From: Candidatus Undinarchaeota archaeon
GTDB taxonomy: Archaea > SpSt-1190 > JASMDC01
Reading direction: 5' to 3'
NCBI GenBank assembly: GCA_964519305.1
Contig: CAZFHY010000003.1
Coordinates: 125,249-189,248 of the forward strand
Length of the DNA stretch: 64,000 bases
Shown: positions 1 to 59,281 of the stretch, in pieces
Layout of the letters: each line of letters begins with the position of its first letter
Position numbering within the stretch: position 1 is the stretch's first letter
Translations under genes and position numbers: made by a program
The notes under the pieces: generated by a model
Databases searched by the model: none
What the model was told of the DNA's origin: nothing
The model's input: only the letters and a program-made list of their open reading frames with translations

Positions 1-504
1 CCCGCTGAGCTGGAAGTTGTCGTTGACCACGATGAGCCTGTTGACACGATGGTTCTTCATCAATGCACGGGCGGTGTCGATGCTCTCCTTCTCATTGATG
101 GTGATGGGTGAGAGGCTCATGAACTCCTCGACCGCCTCGTCACCTTCGTACTGTTTAAGGATATCATCGATGCAAACCGCACCCAGAAGATTGCCTTTGT
201 CCACGACAGGGATTGTCTCCACACCGGACTGAAGCATCTTCTCAGCAGCGCTTTCGACAGTGTCCTCTGGCTGGATGGTTGGGGGCGGGAACATCACGGT
301 GCGGATCTTGGATGTCGTCGGATTGATAGTACCGTCGAGGACACTGTGGATAGTGAGCATCCCTTCGAGCGTACTGTTCGACACGACGATCATCTCCCTG
401 ATCGACTTCCTTGTCATCTCGCTGATGGCCTTGACGACCGATCCGTCAGCGGATGCTTTGGGAACATCACTGCGGATCATGTCACGAGCAGAACTCTGCA
501 TCAT
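1..504 (-). CDS. CBS-domain protein (multiple CBS pairs), runs off the left edge
   Basis: Not in the ORF track; translated by hand from the ATG at 504: MMQSSARDMIRSDVPK...PTIQPEDTVESAAEKMLQSGVETIPVVDKGNLLGAVCIDDIL...PITINEKESIDTARALMKNHRVNRLIVV. These are typical CBS repeats. A GGAGGG SD lies upstream. Confidence 0.85.
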   Translation of the reverse strand, partial: MMQSSARDMIRSDVPKASADGSVVKAISEMTRKSIREMIVVSNSTLEGMLTIHSVLDGTINPTTSKIRTVMFPPPTIQPEDTVESAAEKMLQSGVETIPVVDKGNLLGAVCIDDILKQYEGDEAVEEFMSLSPITINEKESIDTARALMKNHRVNRLIVVNDNFQLSG

Positions 505-531
505 GGTCGTCCCTCCATGGAGGAACAATTA

Positions 532-2106
532 TTAACCTTTCGTTAAAGGGCGTCGCGCCATATACGGTCCCCTACGCTTGTAACCGAGCCTGCGGAAGTA
601 GGGGCGGACACCTATGCCACTAAGGATGAGCAGGCGTTCCTTATCCTGTTCACGGGCCATTGACTCGGCCTCTTCAAGGAGCTGGCGGCCAAGTCCGCGG
701 TGCTGTATGGCCTCTCGTTCATGCCCACCCAGTGGGAGCGCCTCTCCGCACACACGAAGCTCACGGACGATGGCGCAGTCCGTTCCCACTTCCTCGCGGT
801 GCGCCTGGGGGGAAGGGAAGCGAAGACGGCAGTAGCCTAGGAGAGCGTCATCCTCATCATCGGCCGAGATGAAGAGCTCGGTACCGTTACCCGCTTCGTA
901 CTGTTCAATGTTGAAACCGATGGCTTCTGCCGGCGCTGGTCGCTCTTTGCGTTGCCCTCGACCCACCTCTCGGCATCTGATGCACGAACACTTTGTGCCA
1001 CGTTTCGCCATCTCCCTTTCGACGAGCTCTGCAAGGTTCCCCGCCAACACGCCATCAGCGATGTGATTGGACGGGATGTCCCGTAGGATACGCATGGTGC
1101 GGACCCAGCGCGGCATCATGGACTTCACCTCGACCAGCAGATTCACCATCTCCTCTGTCGTTGGAGGGTGGTAGTCACCTTGACGCCATATATCGTACAA
1201 TCCGGTCCCTTCCAGGACCTGCGTGGGGTAGACCTTGACCATATCGGGACAGAACCGTGGATCGGTGAACACTTGGCGGAAGCTCTCGAGGTCCCGATCC
1301 CTGTTAGAACCAGGGAGCCCTGGCATGATGTGGTAATTGACCTTTAGCCCAGCATCACGGGCGGTCCTCGTCGCTTCAACAGCGTCCGCTACGGTGTGAC
1401 CTCGTCCCACCAGCTCGTAAACATCATCGAAGACTGTCTGGACGCCTAGTTCTACCCTGGTAGCGCCCAGCCTGAGCATGAGGTCGATATGGTCCTCCCT
1501 ACAGTAGTCAGGTCTCGTCTCGAAGGTTATGCTCACACAGCGATGCGAGGCATGCTCGTTCTTGCGCTGTGCCTCAAGGAGAGTAGGTGAATCTCCATTG
1601 TTGAGCGCATCGAGGCAACGATGGACGAAGTGCTCTTGCTCCGTGGGAGGACAGGAAGGAAAGGTACCTCCCATTATGATGAGCTCTACCTTGTCAGTAG
1701 AGTGCCCTGTCCTCTCCAGTTGTGTGACCCTAGCATTGGTCTGATCGAATGGATCGAATCCATGGGCGATGGCCCGCATAGCCGCCGGTTCATGCCCTGT
1801 ATAGCTCTGTGGTGCCTTATCGCCGCGGGGGCAGTAGGAGCAGGTTCCATGTGGACACGGTGCAGGTGCGCTCATGACGGCGATCACAGCCACACCCGAA
1901 AGGGAGCGGACAGGCTTCGTCCTCAGTACGGCGCGCCATTGCTTCTGTTCCTCCTCTGATAAGGCCGTGAGGACGTCCGCATTCGATGGTACACCGCCTA
2001 GTGCGAACTCGCGTGCGACTTCTAGCTTGATAGTGTTCAGGTCACCCGCACCTCGGATCTTGAGCTTCAGTATGATGGCTCCTGCTGCCTCCCTGGAAAG
2101 CTCCAC
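532..2106 (-). CDS. elp3: Elp3 tRNA uridine(34) carboxymethyl/acetyltransferase (radical SAM + GNAT)
   Basis: KPVRSLSGVAVIAVM, CPHGTCSYCP, MGGTF, ETRPD, ELGVQ and a C-terminal GNAT (QHRGLGRQLL...GVRPYFRRLGY). Confidence 0.96.
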   Translation of the reverse strand: MELSREAAGAIILKLKIRGAGDLNTIKLEVAREFALGGVPSNADVLTALSEEEQKQWRAVLRTKPVRSLSGVAVIAVMSAPAPCPHGTCSYCPRGDKAPQSYTGHEPAAMRAIAHGFDPFDQTNARVTQLERTGHSTDKVELIIMGGTFPSCPPTEQEHFVHRCLDALNNGDSPTLLEAQRKNEHASHRCVSITFETRPDYCREDHIDLMLRLGATRVELGVQTVFDDVYELVGRGHTVADAVEATRTARDAGLKVNYHIMPGLPGSNRDRDLESFRQVFTDPRFCPDMVKVYPTQVLEGTGLYDIWRQGDYHPPTTEEMVNLLVEVKSMMPRWVRTMRILRDIPSNHIADGVLAGNLAELVEREMAKRGTKCSCIRCREVGRGQRKERPAPAEAIGFNIEQYEAGNGTELFISADDEDDALLGYCRLRFPSPQAHREEVGTDCAIVRELRVCGEALPLGGHEREAIQHRGLGRQLLEEAESMAREQDKERLLILSGIGVRPYFRRLGYKRRGPYMARRPLTKG

Positions 2107-2129
2107 GAGCCCGGCTCTCGGGATAAATC

Positions 2130-2137
2130 CTTAAAGG
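2130..2137. promoter_or_regulatory. AT-rich TATA-like element between divergent elp3 and RDD genes
   Basis: CTTAAAGG lies about 25 nt from both the elp3 GTG (2106) and the RDD ATG (2160). Confidence 0.45.
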
Positions 2138-2159
2138 TATGCCGGGGAGACTCGTTCGA

Positions 2160-2963
2160 ATGAAGGACGAGGTATCCGATAACGACGGACGGATCCGGGA
2201 TGGGGAACCCCCGGTGACCATGAAGGCCGCTCAAAAGACCGAGCCCTCCGTCAAACCGCGGACCACAAAGCCCGTTCACCCTGTACCAGCATCACGGTAT
2301 CCCGGGGACGAGACCGGATTCTCCAACGAGGAGCGTGCCCTTGCCTTCGAGCTCATCGGCGACCTTGCCGTTGTGGGACGCGCAGGCATCTTCAAACGGC
2401 TAGCGGCGGGCCTAATCGATATAACCCTCGTGCTTATTTTCATCGTATGGCCGTGCATGGTAGCAGTGACGTTCTCCTCGGACATCGACCTGAACGAGGC
2501 CGATAGCTTCGAACTATCGAGCGATGATCCCGAGCAGTTCATTGAGGAGCATCAGACCCTTTTCAACGCCATACAACGCGCCCTTATACTCTCTGGGATC
2601 CTGGTTATCGTCTACTTCGCGATTACAGAAGGGACATTAGGTCAGAGCATTGGGAAGGCGTTCATGGACATCGGAGTCATCGCTGAGGACACATCACCAC
2701 TGGGTATCTCTGCGGCGCTTGGTCGTAACGTGCTCAAAGGAACCCTGATCGCTTCAATGGTGACCGTGCTAGCACCCGTTGTCCTAGTAGTATTCCTTAT
2801 TGACGTGATTTCCCTCATCTATGCTGATAAACACCAGCGTTACCTCGATCGGTTCGTAGGCTCGGTGTGTGTCGAGGGTTATGTGCTCGAACACAGCAAG
2901 AAAGGCTCAACCTCATCTACGGATGGCGAGTTCATTACATTCAAGGGGGCGGACAAGCGATGA
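2160..2963 (+). CDS. RDD family membrane protein
   Basis: AGIFKRLAAGLID, GQSIGKAFMDIGV and QRYLDRFVGSVCV motifs. The start could instead be 2139. Confidence 0.85.
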   Translation: MKDEVSDNDGRIRDGEPPVTMKAAQKTEPSVKPRTTKPVHPVPASRYPGDETGFSNEERALAFELIGDLAVVGRAGIFKRLAAGLIDITLVLIFIVWPCMVAVTFSSDIDLNEADSFELSSDDPEQFIEEHQTLFNAIQRALILSGILVIVYFAITEGTLGQSIGKAFMDIGVIAEDTSPLGISAALGRNVLKGTLIASMVTVLAPVVLVVFLIDVISLIYADKHQRYLDRFVGSVCVEGYVLEHSKKGSTSSTDGEFITFKGADKR

Positions 2964-3880
2964 ACATGAAGAACATCGGTATAGGTTTTCTAATCCTCAT
3001 AGGGCTCTTCCTCGTGAGCATCATTATGGGGGCTCTAGTGTCAGTGTCAACCGAGGACGTTGTGGGGGAGGCGATAGGTGTCATACGCCTTGATGGTATC
3101 ATCTCCTACGATGAGTCAGTCGGGATTCTTGGAGGCACCTCTGACATCGAGGATGTCATTACGCAACTCGACAAAGCTCGTAAAACCGGTAATATCAAGG
3201 GAGTCCTTCTGATCATCAACAGTCCTGGCGGAGCCCCAGTGGCCAGCCATGAGCTAGTTCGGGCTATCGAGCGTGTTAAGGAGCAGAAGCCTGTCGTTGC
3301 ATGGATCGCCGACGTGGGGGCATCGGGTGCCTATTGGGCAGCCTCAGCATGCAACCGAACAGTGGCCGACGAACTCTCTGTCACGGGTTCTGTCGGCGTT
3401 ATCTCACAGCATATGGATTATGGTGGCCTGTACGACAAGCTCGGGATAAACACTACTATCATCAAGGGCGGCCGGCTAAAGGATGCCGGAGCGAGCCATC
3501 GTCCATTGACCGATGAGGAACTGGAGCTCATCCAAGAAATTGTCAACACAACGCATACGGTCTTCATCCAGGACGTGATACGGAACCGGGGCCTTACGAC
3601 CGAGCAGGCGCTAGCCGTGTCAACTGGTCGGCTCTTCGTCGGTATCCAGGCCAAGGACATCGGTCTGGTGGACGAACTTGGGGGGAAGAATGATGCCCTC
3701 CGTGTCGTGACGGACCTTGCAGGGGTCCAATGGCGTCCGAGGACCATCGACCTGAAGACCAAGAAGGGATTCCTCGAGCTCATGGACGGGCTCACAGCGA
3801 CTCTCGGCTATGGCATCGGCCGGGGGATGGTCGCTTCCGCCGAGCAGACGGCGACACAGCAAGTGCTCTCTATGGGGTGA
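2960..3880 (+). CDS. sppA: Signal peptide peptidase SppA (S49, 36K type)
   Basis: N-terminal TM, INSPGG, GASGAYWAA, GSVGV, KGGRLKD, TGRLFVG and GLVDELGG. ATGA overlap with the RDD stop. Confidence 0.93.
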   Translation: MNMKNIGIGFLILIGLFLVSIIMGALVSVSTEDVVGEAIGVIRLDGIISYDESVGILGGTSDIEDVITQLDKARKTGNIKGVLLIINSPGGAPVASHELVRAIERVKEQKPVVAWIADVGASGAYWAASACNRTVADELSVTGSVGVISQHMDYGGLYDKLGINTTIIKGGRLKDAGASHRPLTDEELELIQEIVNTTHTVFIQDVIRNRGLTTEQALAVSTGRLFVGIQAKDIGLVDELGGKNDALRVVTDLAGVQWRPRTIDLKTKKGFLELMDGLTATLGYGIGRGMVASAEQTATQQVLSMG

Positions 3881-3966
3881 CCTCTCTCATGAGTGTGGAA
3901 CTGATGATGGATGGGCACCTGTAACGGATGACCATTATAGGGTCTCTGTGGCCTCTCATCGACAAA

Positions 3967-3974
3967 TTTATAAG
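3967..3974 (+). promoter_or_regulatory. TATA box of the psd-methyltransferase-pssA operon
   Basis: TTTATAAG ends 25 nt before the ATG at 3999, implying a leaderless or short-leader transcript. Confidence 0.6.
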
Positions 3975-3998
3975 TCAGGTGGGGCACAATTCCTTGAC

Positions 3999-4646
3999 AT
4001 GGAGCCCCTCCTATTACAAGGACTCCTCTCGTTTGGAATAGTTTGCGGGCTCTTTTACATATTCTTCCACCGGGACCCTGAACGCATGCCTCCTGAAGAG
4101 GATGACATAATCCTTAGTCCGGCGGACGGTTGGATCAAGTGTGTTAAACGCATCATGCCCGGAGAGGTCCCCGTCGTAGAGAAATATGGTCGTGAGATCG
4201 AGCTTGTCGACCTGCCCCATATGGGGATTCTCGAAGAGGGTAAGGGCGGTTTCCTGGTAAGTGTCTACATGTCCCTCATGGACGTCCACGTGAACCGGTC
4301 CCCTGTGGGAGGGACGGTCGAGAACATCCAGTACCGACCGGGAAAGCTCAAGCTCCTCGTTGGACGCACTTTCCAGGCGGAGAACGAACGTAACACACTT
4401 GTGCTCCAGAATGAGGACCATGACATGAAAGTAGGTGTGGTCCAGATAGCTTCCCCCTTCGTGCGCAGGATCGATTGTTACGTCGCTGACGGTGAGCCTG
4501 TCGAGCTCGGTCAGCGGATCGGCATGATCCGGCTCGGGAGCCAGGTCGATCTAATCCTCCCTGACAAGAAAGGGCTCGAGATCGTGGCACACAAGGGGAT
4601 GCGCGTTCGGGCTGGTACTTCAATCTTAGCTAGGTTACGAAGATGA
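3999..4646 (+). CDS. psd: Phosphatidyl/archaetidylserine decarboxylase proenzyme
   Basis: FFHRDPER, ILSPADG, YMSLMDVHVNRSP, NERN and the GMIRLGSQVD self-cleavage (GS) motif. Confidence 0.93.
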   Translation: MEPLLLQGLLSFGIVCGLFYIFFHRDPERMPPEEDDIILSPADGWIKCVKRIMPGEVPVVEKYGREIELVDLPHMGILEEGKGGFLVSVYMSLMDVHVNRSPVGGTVENIQYRPGKLKLLVGRTFQAENERNTLVLQNEDHDMKVGVVQIASPFVRRIDCYVADGEPVELGQRIGMIRLGSQVDLILPDKKGLEIVAHKGMRVRAGTSILARLRR

Positions 4647-5242
4647 GCTTCACATTCCTTTGCGAGGCAGCCAGGGACTTCCGCGCCATAGGCTCACCCA
4701 TACCTTCCCTGGGGGTAGCTGTCCGGCTCATGGTCCGCCAGGCCGGAGTGAAGGAGGGGGATGTCATTGCCGACGCGGGAGCCGGAACGGGTGTCATCGC
4801 GATCGAGGCTGCGCGTAAGGTCGGTCCATCCGGCCATGTCATAGCCGTCGAGAACAACAAGAACCTCTGTAAAAAAGCACGCAAACGCATAAAACGCGCG
4901 GATATGGAAGACCGCATCACACTTATCGAGGGTGATGCCTTCAAACTGCGCAAGTACCTCGCGGACTTGGACGGACGACCCGATCGGTTCGACGCTGTGC
5001 TCTCGTCTGTGCCCATCAGCTATCTACCCGATCCGACAGTTTATATCAAGAGCCTAGCGGACGCGACCAAGCCCGGCGGCACTGTCGTTCAGGAGACCCA
5101 TTTTGCACAGAAGGTAAGACACCTATTCCGTGAGGTAGGTCTCCAAGGGATCCACTCAGCTTTCACTATCATCACCTTCGCTCCTGGAGCAGTAGTCTCA
5201 GGAAAAGTACCGAATGAAGTCAAGGTGTCCGGCCAACGATGA
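4643..5242 (+). CDS. Class I SAM methyltransferase, PmtA-like phospholipid N-methyltransferase
   Basis: SAM motif DAGAGTG. The N-terminus FLCEAARDFRAIGSPIPS and FDAVLSSVP resemble rhizobial-type PmtA. Translationally coupled to both psd and pssA. Confidence 0.75.
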   Translation: MSFTFLCEAARDFRAIGSPIPSLGVAVRLMVRQAGVKEGDVIADAGAGTGVIAIEAARKVGPSGHVIAVENNKNLCKKARKRIKRADMEDRITLIEGDAFKLRKYLADLDGRPDRFDAVLSSVPISYLPDPTVYIKSLADATKPGGTVVQETHFAQKVRHLFREVGLQGIHSAFTIITFAPGAVVSGKVPNEVKVSGQR

Positions 5243-5940
5243 TCCGTGGGATGCTCGCTTTCATTGGAATAAAGGATCTGGTCACGATCTGCAACGCCTT
5301 CGCCGGCTGCGCCGCGATCGTCGTGGCTGCCAAAGGGGGGAACGTTCCGCTCGCATGCGGGCTCATCTTCCTTGCAGCGGTGTTCGACTTCCTCGATGGT
5401 GGGTTGGCGCGCGCTACAGCACCCAATCCCTTCGGCAAGGAACTGGACTCGCTCTGTGATGCCATCTCCTTCGGATTGGCACCGGCCTTACTTGTGTTCT
5501 TCCAGGGCCCGACCGTACCTCTTCACTACCTCGCAGCTCCCTTGATATACCTTGGCGGGGCGATCTTCCGCTTGGCACGCTTTAATGTCACGACACAGAA
5601 GAACTTTACCGGGATACCTTCGCCTGCGGCAGCCCTCACAGCAGCGGCCTTGACGCTTGCAGGTCTTTCATGGCAGATGCTCCATGGTACACTTGTCGTG
5701 CTTTCTTTCCTTATGATCTGCGACATCGAGTACCCGTCGCAGAAGAACCTCAAGTCCAGCCAGATACTCTTCATCGCTATCCTGGGCGTGATTGCCTACA
5801 TTGGGGTCAGCTCTCTGGGAGGTAACGTCCTTGGGACCGCTGGGTCCGCAATAGGTGTTGGCTACATACTCTCCCCTCTCGTTCTGTACGGGAATGCATC
5901 TGATCATGAAGAAGAGACTAAGGATACGGACGAGGAGTGA
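5239..5940 (+). CDS. pssA: CDP-alcohol phosphatidyltransferase, phosphatidyl/archaetidylserine synthase
   Basis: DFLDGGLARATAPNPFGKELDSLCD signature, SFGLAPA and RLARFN...FTGIPSPAAA. Confidence 0.92.
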   Translation: MIRGMLAFIGIKDLVTICNAFAGCAAIVVAAKGGNVPLACGLIFLAAVFDFLDGGLARATAPNPFGKELDSLCDAISFGLAPALLVFFQGPTVPLHYLAAPLIYLGGAIFRLARFNVTTQKNFTGIPSPAAALTAAALTLAGLSWQMLHGTLVVLSFLMICDIEYPSQKNLKSSQILFIAILGVIAYIGVSSLGGNVLGTAGSAIGVGYILSPLVLYGNASDHEEETKDTDEE

Positions 5941-5991
5941 GAGCACGACGTCTAGCATCCATTTAAATTAATTAATAGCCAAAGCACCGGT

Positions 5992-6669
5992 ATGGGCCAT
6001 GGAATGGGTCTAACCGATGAAATGCGGTATCTACTCATAGTCTCTCTCTTCGGCTTCACGGGAGTGATCCTTGCGTGGGCACTGAACATGGTGTTCGTGT
6101 ATCTTGCCAATGAGATCGTCGTGTCGCTGGGTGCAGTTGGGCGTCTCATTCCTGGTCTCGCTGACCATCTCGTGACCTTGGTATCTGGTTCGCTTTGGGG
6201 CTTCTTCGTATTCCTAGGCGTGGTCCAAGCCCGAGGGAAACGACAGAAGACTACCACATCACAGTTTACCTTGTGTTCCATTTCCTTGGGATTCGCTCTT
6301 CTGGGCGCGAGCGCAGTGATCGAGCTCCTAGGTATGATACTTCCCGGGCTAGTTAATGTAGTCGGCCATATCCTGCATGGAGCGCTCCTCGGATGCCTCT
6401 ACGGTTCCTTCCTGGCACTTATCATGCGGCTGGATGTCTGGCACATGTTCGTACCCCTCCTCAGTGTAGGTGGGGCGGTCGGCGCCTTAGCGGTAAGGGT
6501 CCTCCAAGATGTTCCCACTAGCGCCCAGGGGACTATCGAAGTGTATCTCTCTCAGTACGCCTTTACGTCCCAAGGATTCGTGCTCGGATTGTTCGCGGGA
6601 TACGCATTCTTCCTGTGCGACATGCATATGGGGATCTTGCGTCATGCCCGGTGGATGCCGGAGGACTAG
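5992..6669 (+). CDS. Hypothetical multi-pass membrane protein
   Basis: 225-aa ORF with about 6 Gly-rich hydrophobic helices. TTTAAATT TATA-like element at 5962. Confidence 0.7.
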   Translation: MGHGMGLTDEMRYLLIVSLFGFTGVILAWALNMVFVYLANEIVVSLGAVGRLIPGLADHLVTLVSGSLWGFFVFLGVVQARGKRQKTTTSQFTLCSISLGFALLGASAVIELLGMILPGLVNVVGHILHGALLGCLYGSFLALIMRLDVWHMFVPLLSVGGAVGALAVRVLQDVPTSAQGTIEVYLSQYAFTSQGFVLGLFAGYAFFLCDMHMGILRHARWMPED

Positions 6670-7997
6670 CTGTCCTCTACCGGTTCTTCCTCCCTTAAGC
6701 GTGCGACCTCTTTCCTGAGACGGTGTACGATCTCGCGGTCAGGGAGCAGACCGTCGGGTGCTTCCAAGGGTGCCCGCATGCGAACAGGTACACCATCCAT
6801 ACGGTACGCTGTCCCCTCGGACTCGATTCCGGTGAAAGCGCAGGGGATGTAAACGTCCGCGAGCTCGGATGTGACGTTCCATACAGGATCGATGACGATG
6901 ACCGGGATGCGTCGTAGGGCGCCGAGGGACTTGAGCGGTAAGTGGGCAGCAGGATCCGAGGCCACCACTAGGAGACAATCGCACTCACCCGAGGAGAGGA
7001 CCGGGAACAGGTCGGTCTCACCGGGATTATAGCGGGGGTGCCCGCGGGAGAGATCGACGGCGAAAGGGTAACCCGTTCGCCAAGTGAACGCTTCACATGC
7101 ACCCGTGACATTGAAATGTCCTCGCATAGGAAGGACAACGGCCTTCGTATGTTCGCTCAGGTCCCTGAGGAGCGAGAGGAGGGCGTCAACGTTACGATGG
7201 CGCCCCGTTGATGTTGTCAGTCCCAGTCCGAAGAAAAAGGCACAGAACTCGCTGTCTTTGAGCTTGTCAGAGAGCCATCGGAGCTCATCCAGTGGAATCC
7301 CATCGATGGAGTCGGGCATATCCTGTCCTTGGATGAGCATACGTAAGGCACAGAGCACCTCGTAATCACTCCCCGGTCTGACCTTTATGAACCTGTCGGC
7401 CACCTCGGCCGTACCCGTGGGACGGACATCTACCACGACCACCTGTCGATCGTCACGGCCTTTCTTCCGGAACGCACCTTCTGGGAAGACAGAGTAGCGG
7501 CTCATGTGCCGGTCGTGTGATGCGGCGGGATTCGAGCCCCAGTACACCACACAGTCTGCATGGTTGAGCACCTCGCCAAGCGTCGCTGAAGAGATCCCTA
7601 CTTCTTGGACGGCTTGGATGGAGGGTCCGTGGCAGAAGGATGAGCAGTTGTCGATCAGGGCTCCAAGTTCCTCCGCGAGGTCGAGCCCCTCGCATATGGT
7701 CTCAGTACTTGTTGAGCTCCAACCGAACAGGACGGGGCGCTCGGCCTTTTCAAGCAGCATTGCCGCCTGTTTCAGGGATTCATCCAGTGTGGCATCGCGG
7801 AAGTGGTCCGTCCGGACTTCCTTGAAATCTCCGTTCTTCACTCTGATCCTGGGGACGAGCTCTCGAGATGATGGCTTGGAGAATGCATGATCGCCGACCT
7901 TACAGGCATTGCATACATCCTCGATCGTGTTCTCTGAAGTACGCACTTCGATATCGTCACATAGGCATCCGCAATAGGGACACACGACATCTTTCAA
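6666..7997 (-). CDS. fwdB: Formylmethanofuran dehydrogenase subunit B (Mo/W-bisPGD)
   Basis: VVCPYCGCLCDDI...C Fe-S motif, metal-ligand CHGPS, WGSNP, HxRHMSRYS, PMRGHFNV, WRTGYPFAVD and GTAYRMDGVP. TTG start overlaps the fwdD stop. Confidence 0.93.
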   Translation of the reverse strand: MKDVVCPYCGCLCDDIEVRTSENTIEDVCNACKVGDHAFSKPSSRELVPRIRVKNGDFKEVRTDHFRDATLDESLKQAAMLLEKAERPVLFGWSSTSTETICEGLDLAEELGALIDNCSSFCHGPSIQAVQEVGISSATLGEVLNHADCVVYWGSNPAASHDRHMSRYSVFPEGAFRKKGRDDRQVVVVDVRPTGTAEVADRFIKVRPGSDYEVLCALRMLIQGQDMPDSIDGIPLDELRWLSDKLKDSEFCAFFFGLGLTTSTGRHRNVDALLSLLRDLSEHTKAVVLPMRGHFNVTGACEAFTWRTGYPFAVDLSRGHPRYNPGETDLFPVLSSGECDCLLVVASDPAAHLPLKSLGALRRIPVIVIDPVWNVTSELADVYIPCAFTGIESEGTAYRMDGVPVRMRAPLEAPDGLLPDREIVHRLRKEVARLREEEPVEDS

Positions 7998-8404
7998 GGT
8001 ACAGCCCTCCTGAGAAGGTCGCGTACACTCTCTACATCCTCACCAAGCGCCCGTGATACTCTGGCATCCAGACCTTTGAGACCTGGTAATCCTGAGCCCT
8101 CGCATGCATCGGTGCTCACAGCACTGGCCCATGGGCCAATAGGTATCGATACAAGTCCCTTCATACCCTCGAGGCCAGCCAGTACCCGGACGACGACCGA
8201 TCCGCCATCGGTAGTAACGCGGACGGTATCTCCTTCTGCCACGCCCAACGAACGCATGTCCGATGGAGCAAGGGAACAAATCCCTACGTTCTCGCGGTAT
8301 TCAGCGTGGAGCTTCTTATGGATGGTCGTACCCTGGCCTACAGTGCGCATGGTGACCAGGGTGAGCGTCAGCTCCTTAGACCGTCCCATGGCTATGGTCC
8401 CCAC
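7994..8404 (-). CDS. fwdD: Formylmethanofuran dehydrogenase subunit D (molybdopterin dinucleotide-binding)
   Basis: LVTMRTVGQG, DMRSLGVAEGDTVRV and IPIGPWASAV...GLPGLKG. AGGAGG SD. Confidence 0.9.
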   Translation of the reverse strand: MGTIAMGRSKELTLTLVTMRTVGQGTTIHKKLHAEYRENVGICSLAPSDMRSLGVAEGDTVRVTTDGGSVVVRVLAGLEGMKGLVSIPIGPWASAVSTDACEGSGLPGLKGLDARVSRALGEDVESVRDLLRRAVP

Positions 8405-8445
8405 TGGGCCTCCTTATTTTATGATCAGGCCTTTGTCGGACCCGA

Positions 8446-8745
8446 TCACTCCTTCTTCTTCAACACGACCTCGAACTGGCCATCCCAGCCAGCCCCTTGG
8501 ACCTTAAGGCCGTCTTCCTTTGCCTTGTCCAGGAACTCACGCAGGGGTTCGAGCATGTCGACCAGGAAACCGACCTGGGCGTTCACAGTAACGCCCTCGC
8601 GTCGGATACCGTGCATAGCGCAGATGACCGCATGCATATCGTTCGCGGAATCAGCATTGCATTCGACACCCTCTTTGTATCCCAACATCTTTCCTAGCGG
8701 GCAGATATCGCATCGTGTGAATGACTTGACGTTGTCGAAACCCAT
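8446..8745 (-). CDS. Small hypothetical Cys-containing protein
   Basis: Fills the operon gap between the M42 peptidase and fwdD. GGTGAT SD; CDIC plus two further Cys. Confidence 0.7.
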   Translation of the reverse strand: MGFDNVKSFTRCDICPLGKMLGYKEGVECNADSANDMHAVICAMHGIRREGVTVNAQVGFLVDMLEPLREFLDKAKEDGLKVQGAGWDGQFEVVLKKKE

Positions 8746-8765
8746 GAGTATCACCAATTAGCCCC

Positions 8766-9830
8766 CTAAAGGGCCCTAATGAATCCCTCCAGGAGGCGTA
8801 GAGATGCCTCCAGATCAGCGAGAGAAAAGATTTCAGCAGTGGAGTGTATGTATCGTGTGGGCACACCTACAGCACCGCTCATAACACCCCGTCTGACGGA
8901 CTGGATGGCGGACGCATCTGTGGTCGAGCCTTCGGCGATCTCGTACTGGATGGGGATCTTCCCTTCAGCAGCTGCGTCCTGGAGCGCCCTGAGCACGCGC
9001 TCGTGGACAATGAGCCCCCAATCGGCGATGACGATTGCCGGACCCTTTCCAAGTTCGATCTTTGGTTGTCCCTCGGGTACTCCCGGGAAGTCCGTAGCGA
9101 TCGAGACCTCAAGAGCGAGAGCGGCCTCGGGCTGGACGGCATACGCCGCTGTGGCAGCTCCCACGGTACCGAACTCCTCTTGGACAGTACCGGCAAGGTA
9201 TACAGTATTCTGAGGTCGATTGTCATGAAGGTAGCGTGCCAGGAGCACAAGCATAAGGCAACCGACACGATCGTCGGCCGCCGATATCATCACACGGTCC
9301 TTTCCTAGTAGCCTGACACCCTTCTCGAAGACTATGAAGTCACCCGGTGAGATCCCGAGAGCGAGTGTCTCATCCTTAGTGGACGTTCCGACGTCAAGGA
9401 ATAGATCATTGATCTTGAGCTTCTTCTTGTCCTCTTTCTTGTGAAGGTGCGGTGGAAGGGCGCCGATAACGCCATGGAATGCTCCCTTCTCCCGAGTGAG
9501 GATCTTGGCCTGCTGACCGAGGACCATGCGTGGGTCCAGTCCGCTCAGGTTGGTGAACCTTATCTGCCCCGTGTCCTCGATCACGGTAGCGAGCATGGCG
9601 ATCTCGTCCATATGTGCGGCCATTAAGATGGAAGTGCCGTCTTCATCCGCACCTTTGATGATGCCCACAAGGTTACCGAGCCGGTCGACCTTGATCTCGT
9701 CCACATATGGTCGCAGGAGCTCTGTGAGCGCTTCTCTGACCGGGCCCTCGCGAGCGGGAGGTCCGTCAGCGAGTGCGAGGTTCTCCAGCACTTCGATTGT
9801 CTCAGTCCGGTCAAGCGTGATCTTCTTCAT
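8766..9830 (-). CDS. M42 family (TET/Frv-type) aminopeptidase
   Basis: AAHMDE, DDRVG, TVQEE.G..GA, LGKGP, TTDA and PTRYIHS metal-binding motifs. Confidence 0.93.
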   Translation of the reverse strand: MKKITLDRTETIEVLENLALADGPPAREGPVREALTELLRPYVDEIKVDRLGNLVGIIKGADEDGTSILMAAHMDEIAMLATVIEDTGQIRFTNLSGLDPRMVLGQQAKILTREKGAFHGVIGALPPHLHKKEDKKKLKINDLFLDVGTSTKDETLALGISPGDFIVFEKGVRLLGKDRVMISAADDRVGCLMLVLLARYLHDNRPQNTVYLAGTVQEEFGTVGAATAAYAVQPEAALALEVSIATDFPGVPEGQPKIELGKGPAIVIADWGLIVHERVLRALQDAAAEGKIPIQYEIAEGSTTDASAIQSVRRGVMSGAVGVPTRYIHSTAEIFSLADLEASLRLLEGFIRAL

Positions 9831-9842
9831 TGTGAGGACCTC

Positions 9843-10652
9843 TTAGTCGAAAAGGTGTGATATGAAGTCGTGGGTGCAGCCGTTACCGGGAGCATTGAGG
9901 AGCTCCGGGACACCATCATCGTTCTTAGGGATCATGATGGATGAGGATACCGTGTTGTGGTTCATGGGATTCTCGGGAATGGCGTGGCGACAGATAGAGT
10001 ATTCGGATGGATCCGGATCGTGATCGCGGTAGACCTCCATGATATCCTTGGGATGTATCTTCTTTTTCGGTGCGAGGAGATCCTGTACCCGCTTCCTTCG
10101 CATATAGGAGCTTGGATAAGAGTAGACGTCAGGGCCGAACTCATCCAGGAAAATGAAGTGATTGGTTCGCACTTGGATGCCGTTCGTGATGCGCTGGACC
10201 GCGAACTCGGAGTCGGTGCCTTCGATGATCGCACCCTCGGTAGCATCTGCCAAGAGCATGCTTCCACCCATGTATCGCCCGTGCTCTATCTCCTCGGTCA
10301 CGAACCGGATGGCCTCCTCGACGTTCGCACAGAGGCCTAGGATCGCACGGCCAAGGACACCGCACTTCCGCAGAGTAGCGTCCGCGCCAGGGATGGGCTT
10401 CCAGTCCTCTTCCCATCCCGGTTTATTGATCTTGACGAAAAAAGTACCAATGCATAATCCTTTGTCATTGATACCCTGGGTGATTATGTCCGGTCGGGTC
10501 TTGTGGTTGACGCCCATGAATGAGTAATCCAAGCGGTCCTTGATGACCATCTCCTCCCCCCGGATTTCACCGCATTCCTTATCCCTGTTCTTGGCCATGA
10601 AAACCCGGCCGAAAGAAGACCGGTCAGCGCCGATGATAATGCCCGTACACAT
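9843..10652 (-). CDS. Ntn-hydrolase, C45/C69-like peptidase or acyltransferase with an N-terminal Cys nucleophile
   Basis: Starts MCTGIIIG...MAKNRD, then GINDKGL, LLAD and VRTNHF...SSYMRRKR. The true start is ATG 10652, not 10727. Confidence 0.85.
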   Translation of the reverse strand: MCTGIIIGADRSSFGRVFMAKNRDKECGEIRGEEMVIKDRLDYSFMGVNHKTRPDIITQGINDKGLCIGTFFVKINKPGWEEDWKPIPGADATLRKCGVLGRAILGLCANVEEAIRFVTEEIEHGRYMGGSMLLADATEGAIIEGTDSEFAVQRITNGIQVRTNHFIFLDEFGPDVYSYPSSYMRRKRVQDLLAPKKKIHPKDIMEVYRDHDPDPSEYSICRHAIPENPMNHNTVSSSIMIPKNDDGVPELLNAPGNGCTHDFISHLFD

Positions 10653-10739
10653 GAGAACCAACTCGAATACCGCGGTACGCGGCCGTATCGAAAGGAGTGC
10701 CCCAAACACATAAAAAGATGTTGGCACCCTTGCCCTTGT

Positions 10740-11636
10740 ATGTCCCTTACCATAGGGCTTTTCACGAGGAAGCTAACGTGGGAGAACCAGAAGGTCCTCG
10801 TAGCCCTCATCAAGAAAGGTTGCGACGTTCTCACCATCTCACCAGAAGAGATCCGTTTTGAGATATCTGACGGTATCAAGGCACGGTTAGAAGACTATGA
10901 CCTGTCACATCTTAGTGGTGTGTACAATCGTCTGGACGTCACTCCCGACCTCGGTATGCCCTATCATGCATTCCAAGCGATCAAATACATCGACAAGGCC
11001 GGAGTTCCCATCGTCAACAGCCCCGCATCAATCGCCACGGCACATAACAAGTTCAATACCTTCGCAGCGCTCATGGGTGGCGGGATCCGACTCCCGCTCA
11101 CAATCCTTGCCCAAGACGTTGTCCAAGCCGAATCCATCCTCAACCGGAGTGAACTCCCTCTTGTCATAAAACCTGTGTTCGGCTCATGGGGCCGAGATGC
11201 GTTCCTTGTGAACGACTTGGAAGAAGGCCACTACATCCTTGAGAACCTGGCTGAACGTGGTTGGTTCCAGGAATCGGGCATCCTGATACAACGATACATC
11301 GACAATCCTGGTAGGGACATCAGGGCGCTGGTCGTTGGTGACCGAGTCGTCGCCGCCATGTACCGATACGCACCTCGGGGGGAGTGGCGAACCAACATAT
11401 CTCTCGGTGGTCGTGGAGAGCCCTGTAAGATCACACCGGAGATCGAGGAACTGGCTGTCCGCTCCCTCGAGCTAGTGGGCGGTGAGATAATGGGCGTCGA
11501 CCTTATGGAGAGCAAGGAAGGGCTCTTCGTCCTCGAAGTGAACGGTTCGGCTGACTTCCGCGGCCTCACACGGGCCACGGGTGTGGATGTCAAGGAGATC
11601 ATTGCTGACTATCTTATCAAGACTTTTAGACGATGA
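10740..11636 (+). CDS. RimK/LysX family ATP-grasp amino-acid ligase
   Basis: NKFNT, VIKPVFGSWG, IQRYI, RDIRALVVG, WRTNISLGG, GVDLMES and LEVN. Confidence 0.92.
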   Translation: MSLTIGLFTRKLTWENQKVLVALIKKGCDVLTISPEEIRFEISDGIKARLEDYDLSHLSGVYNRLDVTPDLGMPYHAFQAIKYIDKAGVPIVNSPASIATAHNKFNTFAALMGGGIRLPLTILAQDVVQAESILNRSELPLVIKPVFGSWGRDAFLVNDLEEGHYILENLAERGWFQESGILIQRYIDNPGRDIRALVVGDRVVAAMYRYAPRGEWRTNISLGGRGEPCKITPEIEELAVRSLELVGGEIMGVDLMESKEGLFVLEVNGSADFRGLTRATGVDVKEIIADYLIKTFRR

Positions 11637-18349: not shown

Positions 18350-18417
18350 GGCATGGGTGACTGGAAATGCCCGTATCGGGGAAACCCTTTTCAAGGTTAG
18401 GCAAGGGTGGGAACGTT

Positions 18418-21400
18418 GTGAAGCGGGCCTCGAGACTTGTCGCGGTCATTGTTGTCGCGGCACTCCTCTACATCCTCCCGGAGATCCTGCGTGAACTCTT
18501 CCTCGGAACGTATGGTTTCGTTGGTTGGCCTACGTACTACCATACACGGATCGCCCGTCTAATCGTCAATGAGCAGGCCTTTCCTGTTTATGACGCGCAG
18601 TCCTTTGGCGGAAGGCCATGGTCCTATCCACCCGGCTTCCCTTCGCTACTTGCTGTAGTGGCCATCGTGAACGGGTGGGAGCCGAGCCTCTCGGTCATCA
18701 TCGTCCCTCCGATCATCGGAGCGGTATCCATCGGCCTCGTCTATGCCATCGCCCGACGGGTCGGCGTACCACCTCTGCTGGCAGCAGTGATCTTTTCGAT
18801 CAGTCCGCCCCAAGTGTACTCTGCCAGCCACTCGATGTCCCGCATCCTTCCGTTGTTCGAGGCCTATGCTGTCCTCCTACTGCTCCTCCTCTATCTGCGC
18901 TCGCGCCGGACCGCTTTCCTAGCGCTCTCGGTCCTCTGTCTAGCTACGACCTGGGGATCACACCTGGCGGTCAGCCTCTATTCCTGTATCCTTGTCGCAG
19001 GTCTCCTCTACGAAGGAGGGATCAGTCCTTCAGAAGCCCTTCTGCTCTTCGTAGGCTCCTTCCTCCTCGTGGGTTTCTGGTATGTGAATATCTACACTAC
19101 GCTCGGCATACCAGAGAAGAACGCGTTCCATCAGAACTTCGGTGACCTGACTGCCTACTTTCCTGACCTGATCTTCGAGTTGAGGCTAACGTCCTTGAGC
19201 CTTCTTGTGTATGCTGCGTCCCTCCTTGCTATCCCTATCCTGTCACGTAGCCCTGAGGGGAGAGCGGTAGCGTGGTGGATGTTCGTTACCCTCGTGTTCG
19301 TAATGGCCGTGGGGAACCGTGAGAACATCTACCTCGCGATGCCGTTCTCGCTTGCCGCGTCCATAGTATTTCGCAAACTACCACGTCGCCTCATGGTGCC
19401 CGTTCTGGTGCTCCTGTTGTACTATGCATGGAACCAGACCGCGTTCATGGCGATCCTACCGCCGAACACACCTCTTATTGACACGATGCGCTGGGTGGGC
19501 AACAACACACCACTGGACGCAGTCGTGCTCTCTGAATGGTCGAAAGGCCACTGGATCGCGACCATCGCCGGTCGACAGAACGTCATGGACTTCTTCGCCG
19601 AGTACGTGGACGATGCCGACGAAGTATGGTGGGACACGCGTATCATCTTCCAGGGTGATAATGTTACCAAGACCATGGGCTTGCTGGCTAAGTACAACGT
19701 CAGTCATATCCTCATCGACTCACCGATGCGTCAGTGGGAATTGTGGGGTTGGGAGAAGTACGGCCTGCTATCTTACGTCAATGATACGGAGGAGTTCAGC
19801 CTCGTTTACAACAACACCTATGCTCAGGTATACGAGGTGCACAACACTTATCCTCCCATCGAGATCCACATCCCCAAGCTGGAGCGACAACAGAACACGT
19901 TCACAAGACTGTCCCGCGTGCTCCCCGTGCTAGCGCTCGTTGTGGCGGGTGGTGTCTGGTGGAGCGGGACCCTCTCTACGGTGGCCCTCTCGTTGTTGAT
20001 GCTCCTTATCGCGCTCCCGTTCCATATCTATCCGATCGCGGCCAACGTCGCACCTCTCGGATGGGATGCGGCGTTCCACCAACGTCTGACATCACTACTC
20101 GGGAGCCAGGCGGACCTTCCTGTATTTGATCCGCTCTCGTCAGGGGGACGGCCGGTGGGCATCGGGATGGGGTACCATATCCTTGGTGCGCTCGTAGGGC
20201 TCCGGACCGTGAACACGATGGCCTATCTCGCGCTATTCCCGCTGTTCTACGTGTTCGCCCGCCGATACCTGCCACGACCCTATGCGGTTCTGGCAAGCGG
20301 TGTGTTCCTACTTCAGTTCGAGGTCCTGGTGAGCTCTACTGCTCTACATCCCCGCATTCTGGGCCTTGCGCTCGTACTGGCCCACATGCGTTGGCGCAAC
20401 CCCCTGATGCTCTTGGCCATCTCGACCATTCATCTTCCGTCATTCCTCTTCGCCATCCAGATATCGCTGCTCAGTGACCTTGTGGAAAAATGGCGAGCCG
20501 TCGATCTCGTCCTCCTGATACTGACAGTTCCGGCGTTCCTGTTCCGGCTTGTCTCATTTAATCCATTAGTGCCCCTGGTCCTGGTATTCCCGTTCATCTG
20601 GGTCCGGGAGAAGCGAAGCTTAGTAGCGCCCCTCATGGTCGCACTCCTCTGGCTCGCTTTCCTCAACGCAGGAGGGATGGTGTTCAACGATCCCACATGG
20701 GGGTGGACCGAGCCATGGAACTTCTATACGTACAAGTACAGCTACATGGGTGTCCTACTTGGATTGATAGCGCTTCCCCTGGTGCCGTCGGAGCTCATTG
20801 CTCTGACCGCGTACTCTGTCGTGCTGACTAAGTACCAGTTCCTGACCTATGTCCCCAATACCTTCTCGCTCTTCCCTTCAGTATTCGTGGCCATGATGGC
20901 TGCTATCGGTCTACGAGCTGTCATACGCACCGTGGTCGATCCGGCTGAGCCCAAGTTCGGGAGGAAGGTGGCGGGAGCACTGCTTATCTTCATGATATAC
21001 TGGTGCGCTCGGGCGAGCCTCAATCACGCGCTCAACGCCTATCCGGACGTTACACTGGAGGATCTCGAAGCGCTGAAATGGGTGGAGGCCAACGCAACGG
21101 GTACTGTCCTGGGGTCGGTGGATATATCTGCAGTCTGGCTTCCCACCTACGCCAACCGCACATCCTATCTGGATGCTGAGTTCTTCACGACACCGGACTT
21201 CGTTCATCGTGAGAACATCACGAAGAGCATCTTCGCCAAGGACGATCCGAATGTGGTCCGCTATCTAGTGGATAAGGAAGGGATCGACTATATCTACCTG
21301 ACCGCCGAGGACCCGCGCTTTATCAGGCGAGGTATCGAGAACATCACAAAGAAGTTCGAGCAGGCTAACCTAACTCTTGTCTACAAGAACGATCGCGCCC

Positions 21401-21432
21401 GTATATTCGCGACGGGGGTGGGTCCGGAGTGA
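18418..21432 (+). CDS. Tandem double STT3/AglB-like GT-C membrane glycosyltransferase
   Basis: Module 1: GWPTYYHTRIAR...D.QSFGGRP.SYPPG...WVGNNTP.DAVVLSEWSKGHWI. Module 2: GWDAAFHQRL...DPLSSGGRP...LEALKWVEANATGTVL...IDYIYL. Confidence 0.75.
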   Translation: MKRASRLVAVIVVAALLYILPEILRELFLGTYGFVGWPTYYHTRIARLIVNEQAFPVYDAQSFGGRPWSYPPGFPSLLAVVAIVNGWEPSLSVIIVPPIIGAVSIGLVYAIARRVGVPPLLAAVIFSISPPQVYSASHSMSRILPLFEAYAVLLLLLLYLRSRRTAFLALSVLCLATTWGSHLAVSLYSCILVAGLLYEGGISPSEALLLFVGSFLLVGFWYVNIYTTLGIPEKNAFHQNFGDLTAYFPDLIFELRLTSLSLLVYAASLLAIPILSRSPEGRAVAWWMFVTLVFVMAVGNRENIYLAMPFSLAASIVFRKLPRRLMVPVLVLLLYYAWNQTAFMAILPPNTPLIDTMRWVGNNTPLDAVVLSEWSKGHWIATIAGRQNVMDFFAEYVDDADEVWWDTRIIFQGDNVTKTMGLLAKYNVSHILIDSPMRQWELWGWEKYGLLSYVNDTEEFSLVYNNTYAQVYEVHNTYPPIEIHIPKLERQQNTFTRLSRVLPVLALVVAGGVWWSGTLSTVALSLLMLLIALPFHIYPIAANVAPLGWDAAFHQRLTSLLGSQADLPVFDPLSSGGRPVGIGMGYHILGALVGLRTVNTMAYLALFPLFYVFARRYLPRPYAVLASGVFLLQFEVLVSSTALHPRILGLALVLAHMRWRNPLMLLAISTIHLPSFLFAIQISLLSDLVEKWRAVDLVLLILTVPAFLFRLVSFNPLVPLVLVFPFIWVREKRSLVAPLMVALLWLAFLNAGGMVFNDPTWGWTEPWNFYTYKYSYMGVLLGLIALPLVPSELIALTAYSVVLTKYQFLTYVPNTFSLFPSVFVAMMAAIGLRAVIRTVVDPAEPKFGRKVAGALLIFMIYWCARASLNHALNAYPDVTLEDLEALKWVEANATGTVLGSVDISAVWLPTYANRTSYLDAEFFTTPDFVHRENITKSIFAKDDPNVVRYLVDKEGIDYIYLTAEDPRFIRRGIENITKKFEQANLTLVYKNDRARIFATGVGPE

Positions 21433-22871
21433 GAACGGATCGTGTACGCTGGATCGTTGTGCTCGTGGCGATCTCGCTCATCCTCCGAACGATGATCGGG
21501 CTCACGCTAACGCCGTATCTCCATGGCATGGACGGGTATTTCCACCTGAGGATGGCCCACCTCGTAGTCCGCGACGGCCAGATACCGACCGTGGACGCGA
21601 ACTCATGGGGAGGACGTTATTACAATTATCTCCCTGCTTTCCATGTTCTGTTGGCGACCATCAGGCTCGCCACTGGTATCCCATTCGAGACAGCGGCCCG
21701 TGCCATCGGACCCCTTATCTCAATTCTCCCCACATTATCCATCTTCTTGTTGGTCCGTCCCCATGGTACTCGCCAGGCCTTTCTCGCCATGTTGGCGTTC
21801 GCCCTTGCGCCGTACGCTATGTTCAAGTTCACCGTGAACGCTATGGCGGATGCCCTGTCCCTCGGTCTCATCGTACATGCTGTTCTCTTGGCGTCACGAG
21901 GACTGTACCCTCTCCTCTGCCTCACGGTCTTCACCTGCGCTTTCACTCATCCCTCGGCTGCATTCCTCCTCATCCTCACACCTTTCCTCCCCGCTCGCCG
22001 CTCATTGATACTCGTCCTGTTCCTGGCGCCAGTGTGGGTGTTCCTGGCATCATTAGCCCCTATCGCGGGCCAAGGGATAGCTCATCAGTTCGTGCCAGAC
22101 CTCCTCCTGGACCATATCTACGAGCCGGTAACGCGACTACACCTCACGATCGGTTTCAATCCCCTCATCGGTATCCTGGCGGTCGCGGGCTTGGCGTTCC
22201 ATGACGGGTCGCGGAGCGAGAGGATGCTGCTCGTACTCTCAACATGTATAATCGTGGGTGTTATGCTCGGTTATTTAGAGGCGGGTCGCGGTATAGCCTA
22301 CCTAACTCCTGCCGTGGCAGTGTTCGCGGCCGCTGCTGCCGACCGGTTAGCGACCGGGGGCTGGCCTGCCGGGTTCTTACTCGCAGGTTCCCTGGTATTC
22401 AGTATCCTGGTCCTCATGTGGGCCATCCACTTCTCCTTCTGGGGTGTGATGTCGCCGGCCCAGCGTGGTGCACTCCTCTGGTTGAAGGACCAGCCTCGCG
22501 GGACCGTGGCCACCTGGCTGGGGGACGGGCAATGGATCGCCACCGTAGCCGACCAACCGAACATCATGGACGGTCATTTCACGGGGCGTACGGATTCCAA
22601 TGAACGTCTTAACGACCTCAATGACCTCTTCAACGTCACGACGGCCAGTAAGGCAGAGGGGATTCTCCGTAAGTATGACGTGACCTACGTCTACCTTCAC
22701 AAGCTCCACTGGCACTGGATGGAGCGACAGGGTTATGAGCATGATCGGCTCGTCTATTCCATTGATAGCTCGTCCTGCTTCGTCAAGGATTTCGACAATG
22801 GACATTCTCGGTTCTATCGTGTTGTCCGTCGCACCGATTGTTTCCCGCCGAACATCGCAGACATAATCTGA
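21429..22871 (+). CDS. STT3/AglB-like GT-C membrane glycosyltransferase
   Basis: GMDGYFHLRMA...DANSWGGRYYNYLPAFH and LLWLKDQPRGTVATWLGDGQWI...KYDVTYVY. GTGA overlap with the upstream gene. Confidence 0.75.
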   Translation: MRTDRVRWIVVLVAISLILRTMIGLTLTPYLHGMDGYFHLRMAHLVVRDGQIPTVDANSWGGRYYNYLPAFHVLLATIRLATGIPFETAARAIGPLISILPTLSIFLLVRPHGTRQAFLAMLAFALAPYAMFKFTVNAMADALSLGLIVHAVLLASRGLYPLLCLTVFTCAFTHPSAAFLLILTPFLPARRSLILVLFLAPVWVFLASLAPIAGQGIAHQFVPDLLLDHIYEPVTRLHLTIGFNPLIGILAVAGLAFHDGSRSERMLLVLSTCIIVGVMLGYLEAGRGIAYLTPAVAVFAAAAADRLATGGWPAGFLLAGSLVFSILVLMWAIHFSFWGVMSPAQRGALLWLKDQPRGTVATWLGDGQWIATVADQPNIMDGHFTGRTDSNERLNDLNDLFNVTTASKAEGILRKYDVTYVYLHKLHWHWMERQGYEHDRLVYSIDSSSCFVKDFDNGHSRFYRVVRRTDCFPPNIADII

Positions 22872-35000: not shown

Positions 35001-35395
35001 TTGATCCCATCACCGAAGTCAAGCGAGAATGTCACGTTGGGACAGGTCGGGGTGGCCGTGAGCGTGATGCCCTCGATGACCGTTCCTTGTCCCGGGAGCA
35101 TCATGGTACGGGTACCGGCGAGGACCAGGCGGGTGCTGTAGTCCATGAAATGGCAGAGGTCACCATCGATTGTGCAAAGTTCGGGCGAGGCGCCCGGGAT
35201 GGGGAGCACGACGCCCTCTGCATCAAAAGTGATGACTGTGGCCTCGTCGCCAACGGTATAGAGCGTAGGATTGCTCACGGTGAGCGTTGCGAGGACGGGC
35301 GCTAGCATAAGTGCGATCGCCAGGAGAACCGTCGTCCTTCTACGCATAGGGACTCTTAGACCAGCGTGCTTTTTACGTTTTTGTGCAGCGCCCAT
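32006..35395 (-). CDS. Type I membrane protein: extracellular Ig-like domains, PT stalk, TM and cytoplasmic TPR repeats
   Basis: Signal peptide, DTDPPT Ig-like motif, (PT)n linker, [22 protein letters not shown] and TPR consensus such as [14 protein letters not shown]...[10 protein letters not shown]. The start may be 35347. Confidence 0.82.
33425..33612 (-). repeat. Pro/Thr stalk repeats (TP[AI]PTPN[AV]TA)
   Basis: The 26-nt GCGTTCGGTGTCGGTGCTGGTGTCGC occurs at 33447 and 33501, with a partial copy at 33531. Confidence 0.85.
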
Positions 35396-56350: not shown

Positions 56351-56403
56351 TCAGGTTCGGACTAGTCTGGCCTAAGCGAATGCTGAAAGGAGTGTGCATT
56401 AAA

Positions 56404-59210: not shown

Positions 59211-59281
59211 AGGCCCTTCTGAAAAAGGGTGGGCGCTGCCTCTAGCTATAGATTAAAAGGATGAGCGCGACCTAGTTGTTA

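Follow-up and report, generated by a model that had tools for sequence, protein, structure and literature searches.

A 64,000-nucleotide stretch of the archaeal contig CAZFHY010000003.1 (the window) carries, between genes for a decarboxylase (psd) and a CDP-alcohol transferase (pssA), a gene for a small class I S-adenosylmethionine (SAM)-dependent methyltransferase. We read this protein, with modest confidence and from sequence comparison, as an archaetidylethanolamine N-methyltransferase that acts after the archaeal counterparts of PssA and Psd (Ass and Asd) and yields mono-, di- or trimethylated headgroups. The gene order is psd, methyltransferase, pssA, and both junctions are 4-nt ATGA overlaps. 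The first-pass annotation of this DNA described three translationally coupled genes behind one TATA box with a SAM methyltransferase between Psd and PssA; the open reading frame (ORF) coordinates, the Pfam and NCBIfam assignments and an upstream TTTATAA element all agree with that description (Table 1).

The same annotation took the flanking genes to be Psd/Asd and PssA/Ass, and domain scores and catalytic motifs all fit. Psd matches the Pfam family PF02666 (PS_Dcarbxylase) with 141.2 bits against a cut-off of 22. The LGS motif for autocleavage is present at G180-S181, and a single hydrophobic segment lies near the N-terminus; the protein falls below the NCBIfam equivalog cut-offs (NF003685, 171 against 183 bits; TIGR00164 AS_decarb, 162 against 230). 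PssA matches CDP-OH_P_transf (PF01066) with 56 bits, exceeds the cut-off of TIGR00473 pssA (124.9 against 107 bits) and scores under that of the archaeal model NF038087 arch_ser_synth (133 against 240). Its CDP-alcohol motif is complete (D50-x2-DG-x2-AR...G-x3-D-x3-D74) and it has five hydrophobic segments. The methyltransferase has no hydrophobic segment and its SAM motif is intact (I42-A43-D44-A45-G46-A47-G48-T49-G50, plus E70). In the family alignment A1, G46, G48 and G50 are invariant and E70 nearly so; S121 and P124 are conserved throughout the family alignments. The section of PMC3972451 on the SAM motif of Pmt enzymes gives it as VL(E/D)xGxGxG, with E58, G60, G62 and E84 essential in the Agrobacterium tumefaciens enzyme. 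The window protein has the (E/D)xGxGxG core of that motif, with I-A replacing V-L, and the downstream acidic residue.

Profile comparison indicates that the methyltransferase is homologous to PmtA/OlsG-type lipid N-methyltransferase-like proteins end to end, beyond the SAM core. A PmtA resemblance of the N-terminus and of an SSVP segment had been noticed in the first-pass annotation, and the extent of the alignments bears this out in part. The NCBIfam models OlsG (NF041658, residues 4-164 of the methyltransferase) and PmtA_Agro (NF045881, residues 9-150 on model positions 23-158 of 197) begin at the N-terminus, whereas the quinone C-methyltransferase model MpqE and most other listed NCBIfam models begin near residue 26-36; both matches are weak, at 49 and 41.6 bits. 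A word-indexed search retrieved three proteins at 85-90% identity, after which identity fell to 40% and alignments covered the core only. Of 1.84 billion representatives searched exhaustively with HMMER, 3540 matched at E <= 1e-3. Beyond those close relatives, the only full-length ones above about 80 bits are P0032 (40% identity), P0033 (39%), P0034 (33%) and P0035 (36%); the other matches that align from the first dozen residues are proteins of about 185-220 residues. When 20 relatives were scanned with NCBIfam, the best match was PmtA or OlsG in 16, CpaM for P0035, and ArsM- or CpaM-like for the other three. In alignment A4 of the full-length-type relatives, 43 of 44 match OlsG and 40 of 44 match PmtA at 1e-10. 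When the window clade is aligned profile to profile (hhalign), 34 PmtA/OlsG-like proteins match query residues 3-192 across 183 columns (E 2.7e-40, 28% identity) and 23 generic UbiE/ArsM-like methyltransferases match query residues 23-150 across 122 columns (E 5.2e-32, 34% identity), a contrast between end-to-end and core-only alignment which the choice of rows itself favours, since tree and profile rows were selected among matches to the query by alignment extent.

Two further lines of evidence point towards lipids. A length-restricted search gave 11 proteins at E <= 1e-6, of which three metagenomic ones (P0264, P0265 and P0266; 445-478 residues) have Psd at the C-terminus (PF02666, about 1e-32) fused to a PmtA/OlsG-like methyltransferase domain at the N-terminus, which scores 67-77 bits with OlsG and 57-65 bits with PmtA. 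The methyltransferase superfamily is therefore physically tied to the formation of phosphatidylethanolamine (PE). Among 17 long matches from the exhaustive search none had a Psd or CDP-alcohol domain; these are tandem methyltransferases. The second line is the relative P0035, a protein of 182 residues which NCBI labels Methanopyrus sp. Among cultured organisms, this genus is the chief source of ether lipids with choline headgroups. Archaetidylcholine of Methanopyrus kandleri figures in the title of Nishihara et al. 2002, as it appears among the references of PMC6581649, PMC5572230 and PMC3426160.

Several observations weigh against the assignment. (i) The methyltransferase scores far under the curated cut-offs for OlsG (350 bits) and PmtA (250 bits). 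No retrieved relative reaches either cut-off, and the link to a characterised enzyme is therefore two steps removed. (ii) The top-scoring NCBIfam model is MpqE (53 bits, from residue 28). Ubie_methyltran (PF01209) passes its Pfam cut-off (39.6 against 20.1 bits), in a match that spans just 40-150 of 233 model positions. (iii) The NCBI product name of P0035 is 'TRM11 family SAM-dependent methyltransferase'; this name is no evidence for an RNA substrate because the protein has only 182 residues and the Trm11-like match (TIGR01177) is confined to the methyltransferase core, model positions 169-257 of 330. (iv) The label Methanoperedens is absent among the 94 proteins listed, many of which are nameless. 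(v) The methyltransferase domains of the Psd fusions nest in the PmtA/OlsG-like crown beside P0203, away from the window clade. (vi) A PDB sequence-profile search returns generic class I methyltransferases, with TrmI at or near the top, and none of the best 60 chains is by name a phospholipid N-methyltransferase. Foldseek comparison of the structural model with the PDB likewise returns generic class I methyltransferases, with 1o54 and the Pyrococcus abyssi tRNA m1A58 methyltransferase at the top (TM-score about 0.7).

The phylogeny points in two directions. An unrooted, careful IQ-TREE analysis (70 rows, 215 columns) comprised 23 generic methyltransferases, five members of the window clade, two Methanopyrus-type proteins, P0034, 36 PmtA/OlsG-like proteins and the three fusion domains. 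A split with support 99/97 separates the generic, window-clade and Methanopyrus-type proteins from P0034, the PmtA/OlsG-like proteins and the fusion domains. All 23 generic enzymes lie on one side of a branch (100/92), and the window clade is joined to them at 96/46. A quick tree built beforehand agrees with this, though it is less well resolved. The methyltransferase thus clusters cleanly with neither PmtA, as had been anticipated, nor UbiE: it lies outside the crown, its junction with the generic enzymes has the split support just given, and the tree is unrooted. The topology is compatible with a ladder that would run from generic methyltransferases through the window clade, the Methanopyrus-type proteins and P0034 to the PmtA/OlsG-like crown; because no root is fixed, the tree leaves room for such a basal grade. 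The methyltransferase is a divergent class I enzyme and, by its scores, does not belong to the curated families PmtA and OlsG.

These results bear on a second explanation, that the protein is a housekeeping class I methyltransferase for tRNA, rRNA, protein, quinone or a small molecule, and that its position between psd and pssA reflects the packing of a compact genome. We regard this as unlikely, if well short of negligible. The methyltransferase matches 24 class I SAM-methyltransferase Pfam families; besides Ubie_methyltran, both GCD14 (34.2 bits against 26) and PCMT score above their Pfam cut-offs in the core region. Among the top PDB matches by sequence and by fold are TrmI-type tRNA m1A58 methyltransferases, TrmN, fibrillarin and CbiT; a search of the ESM Atlas returns generic methyltransferase clusters only. 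Besides the 'TRM11 family' name, a further database name, 'UbiE', is given by JGI to relative P0003, and the careful tree ties the window clade to the generic enzymes. Against this, the protein, at 199 residues, lacks the extra domains of TrmI- or Trm11-type enzymes: the TrmI match (3lga/3mb5) covers profile positions 27-163 only and begins at chain residue 82, so the extra domain of TrmI is missing, and no THUMP domain is found by Pfam. Both terminal parts of the window protein align with PmtA/OlsG-like proteins alone, the ATGA coupling on both sides puts it within a two-step lipid pathway, and fusions with Psd occur in the superfamily.

Structure contributes less to the choice between archaetidylethanolamine methylation and a housekeeping role. 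The AlphaFold2 model, computed from a 44-sequence alignment, is Rossmann-type with a predicted local distance difference test (pLDDT) of 88.9 and a predicted template-modelling (pTM) score of 0.85, and the modelled fold does not discriminate lipid from other class I methyltransferases here. The N-terminal helix (residues 4-11) is of low confidence in the model. It is amphipathic across the family (hydrophobic moment 0.44-0.82 in the nine members examined), which would suit binding to a membrane surface and proves nothing.

A third explanation keeps a lipid substrate and changes the acceptor, to the amine of archaetidylserine, another amino-headgroup, or a protein-anchor lipid of an archaeosortase-type system served by PssA/Psd paralogues. 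We consider it improbable. OlsG, which N-methylates ornithine lipids, matches the window protein no less well than PmtA does, and for this reason headgroup specificity cannot be read from the sequence; a passage of PMC3972451, on the other hand, states that ornithine lipids are absent from archaea. NCBIfam models of protein sorting systems also match both neighbours (anchor_synt_A on PssA, 87 bits; anchor_synt_D on Psd, 115 bits), and the window encodes an S-layer-like protein and giant ORFs. The standard Ass and Asd models score higher (133 and 162 bits), and the sorting-system matches fall far short of their own cut-offs of 200 and 240, which is why the lipid-anchoring version is given low weight. 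Pfam detects no archaeosortase among the 37 window proteins scanned, and the gene order yields archaetidylethanolamine, with its free amine, as the local product.

Returning to archaetidylethanolamine as the acceptor, we propose that psd, the methyltransferase gene and pssA are a single operon, coupled in translation, that serves the amino-headgroup branch of archaeal phospholipid synthesis. PssA/Ass would convert CDP-archaeol and serine to archaetidylserine, which Psd/Asd would decarboxylate to archaetidylethanolamine. The methyltransferase would be a peripheral enzyme, without a membrane-spanning segment, that attaches to the membrane surface through its amphipathic N-terminal helix. There it would methylate the nitrogen of ethanolamine one to three times, with SAM as donor; the products would be N-methyl- and N,N-dimethyl-archaetidylethanolamine and possibly the trimethyl form, archaetidylcholine. 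We infer the lipid substrate, methylation on nitrogen rather than elsewhere, the number of methyl groups and the membrane binding of the N-terminus.

The window protein resembles Sinorhizobium-type PmtA (A. tumefaciens and S. meliloti, NF045881) in being a small (about 200 residues), soluble or peripheral class I SAM methyltransferase with an (E/D)xGxGxG core and an acidic residue after strand 2, in homology that covers the N-terminal helix and the S-x-x-P segment, and in a presumed place in the pathway after the reactions of PssA and Psd. It differs in its C-terminal motif (F-A-P-G as against the N-x-P-P of that family), in a core nearer to UbiE-like methyltransferases (34% against 28% profile identity), in a presumed substrate with an ether-isoprenoid sn-glycerol-1-phosphate backbone, and in being embedded between psd and pssA and outside the PmtA/OlsG-like crown. 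OlsG belongs to the same superfamily and gives the longest NCBIfam alignment on the window protein. OlsG adds as many as three methyl groups to a primary amine carried by a lipid. The window protein differs from it in its low score relative to the OlsG cut-off and in a context of genes for phosphatidylserine and PE. Rhodobacter-type Pmt enzymes are described as UbiE-like in a passage of PMC3972451, and the Ubie_methyltran match of the window core is a likeness to them; UbiE/MenG itself is unlike the proposed enzyme in acting on quinones, and that match is partial.

The Psd fusions join in one polypeptide the pairing that is coupled by ATGA in the window, but in the order methyltransferase then Psd and with a methyltransferase domain 26-28% identical to the window protein. 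The Methanopyrus-type proteins P0035 and P0181 are full-length relatives (36% and 33% identity) with the N-terminal helix, an S-T-V-P-V segment and a V-P-G C-terminal motif; unlike the window protein they have no 'GPSG' insertion following the SAM motif, which in them reads DAGTGNG. TrmI/Trm11-type RNA methyltransferases differ from it in possessing the TrmI N-terminal domain or THUMP.

Methylated archaeal aminolipids are known from chemistry. The lipid results of PMC6581649 include monomethyl- and dimethyl-phosphatidylethanolamine (MMPE- and DMPE-) archaeol and hydroxyarchaeol in an enrichment of Ca. Methanoperedens, with no gene named there. The relevant passages of PMC13032954 (2026) report PE-archaeol, its monomethyl (PME-) and dimethyl (DME-) forms and phosphatidylcholine (PC-) archaeol from environments, springs and sediments, and an assignment by KEGG of EC 2.1.1.17/71 in >30 archaeal species; in its supplementary table passage the rows are halophilic archaea, and the file as available does not contain 'Methanopyrus'. 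A 2022 review of archaeal glycerophospholipid biosynthesis contains neither 'methyltransferase' nor 'Methanopyrus' (PMC9385802). Searches of open-access text gave no characterised archaeal N-methyltransferase for PE or archaetidylethanolamine, which upholds the remark in the first-pass annotation that the genes for archaeal choline headgroups are ill-defined. It is possible, though somewhat short of probable on sequence grounds, that the window methyltransferase together with P0032, P0033, P0034 and P0035/P0181 represents the missing archaeal archaetidylethanolamine N-methyltransferase, in a lineage distinct from the bacterial PmtA/OlsG crown.

The arrangement was seen in one other genome. A scan of genome contigs with profile A3 gave 51 loci, of which only L001 (JASMDC010000034.1, labelled Candidatus Undinarchaeales archaeon) contains a true relative of the methyltransferase; the other 50, L045 and L050 among them, are core-only matches to generic methyltransferases. 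L001 has the same psd-methyltransferase-pssA order and the same overlaps. It is collinear with positions 1-11239 of the window at 86.1% nucleotide identity, and because the two are so alike in DNA this synteny adds no independent support: order and overlaps are conserved, in the single close relative seen. The GC content of the operon (0.54-0.59) is similar to that of the remainder of the first 12 kb of the window and therefore gives no signal of horizontal transfer.

A stronger form of the proposal, that the locus holds a complete archaeal route, finds no support. PssA needs CDP-archaeol, and Pfam detects neither CarS nor any core-lipid gene among the 37 window proteins scanned, which also counts against the pathway as proposed. 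The part of PMC7414124 that deals with Undinarchaeales, the label carried by L001, reports their metagenome-assembled genomes (MAGs) to be without genes from glycerone phosphate to archaetidylinositol phosphate. In such a lineage, which is labelled DPANN, the operon could tailor headgroups on lipid backbones derived from a host. The same part of that paper gives these MAGs as about 0.6 Mb with 40-42% GC. The window and L001 both have 56.8% GC, and the Undinarchaeales label of L001 may cover quite a different lineage.

Table 1 Features of the psd-methyltransferase-pssA operon and its putative promoter in the window.
Feature	Positions	Strand	Pfam match	Start, end or spacing
psd/asd, archaetidylserine (phosphatidylserine) decarboxylase proenzyme, 215 residues	3999..4646	+	PF02666, 4.2e-41, residues 18-210	ATG 3999; TGA 4644-4646
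Class I SAM-dependent methyltransferase, 199 residues; candidate archaetidylethanolamine N-methyltransferase, distantly PmtA/OlsG-like	4643..5242	+		ATG 4643 (junction GAAGATGAGC); TGA 5240-5242
pssA/ass, CDP-archaeol:serine archaetidyltransferase (archaetidylserine synthase), 233 residues	5239..5940	+	PF01066, 6.4e-15	ATG 5239 (junction AACGATGATCC); end 5940
TATA-box-like TTTATAA, presumed promoter element	3967..3973	+		26-32 nt 5' of the psd ATG

The TTTATAA heptamer lies before psd in the 118-nt gap downstream of a gene for an S49 peptidase. Shuffling predicts 2.34 occurrences of the pattern TTTATAW in the window; 12 are present, a number reached in none of 100 shuffles. The spacing to the psd start codon suggests a leaderless or near-leaderless operon transcript. 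A second heptamer, TTTATAT at 5040-5046 (+), lies within the methyltransferase gene, about 190 nt before the start codon of pssA, and could serve as an internal promoter or occur by chance. The psd frame is open upstream of 3999 (3810-3998) as far as an ATG at 3810, where it overlaps the end of the S49 peptidase gene, and the longest psd ORF of L001 (5297-6004) encodes 235 residues against 215 in the window. The start at 3999 is the likelier one, since in a protein that begins there the Pfam match starts at residue 18.

Downstream of pssA, after an AT-rich spacer of 51 nt, 5992-6669 (+) encodes a 225-residue protein that has no Pfam match and for which six hydrophobic segments are predicted. 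It is found at the same place in L001 (7326-8027), and it could be part of the lipid locus or unrelated to it. It is followed at 6666-8404 (-) by a molybdopterin oxidoreductase (PF00384) and then a molybdopterin-dinucleotide-binding protein (PF01568), a pair that we take to resemble subunits B and D of formylmethanofuran dehydrogenase (FwdB/D). According to Pfam the window also encodes ELP3, TruD and a KaiC-like ATPase in addition to the S-layer-like protein, a content that marks it as archaeal. Two giant ORFs, 46444-54984 (-) with 2846 residues and 59276-63973 (+) with 1565, have no Pfam match at E <= 1e-3; they flank the KaiC-like gene (55382-56158) and the S-layer-like gene (56380-59148), and may encode large surface proteins. 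Four more large ORFs (1021, 480, 615 and 936 residues), at 18367-22871 (+) and 27288-31936 (-), have no Pfam match at 1e-5, and a 1129-residue TPR protein at 32006-35395 adjoins them.

The 600-bp gene between asd and ass is a concrete and cheap candidate for an archaeal headgroup methylation enzyme, and reduces an open problem in the biochemistry of archaeal lipids to a single gene. If active, the methyltransferase would be a gene marker by which PME-, phosphatidyldimethylethanolamine (PDME-) and PC-archaeol biomarkers could be assigned to their producers, and would show if the making of choline lipids by PE methylation had a separate origin on ether lipids. The question would also arise what use a lineage labelled DPANN has for a headgroup pathway. 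If the clade as a whole should prove to be the missing enzyme, it would explain the archaetidylcholine of Methanopyrus and part of the PME-, PDME- and PC-archaeols found in the environment.

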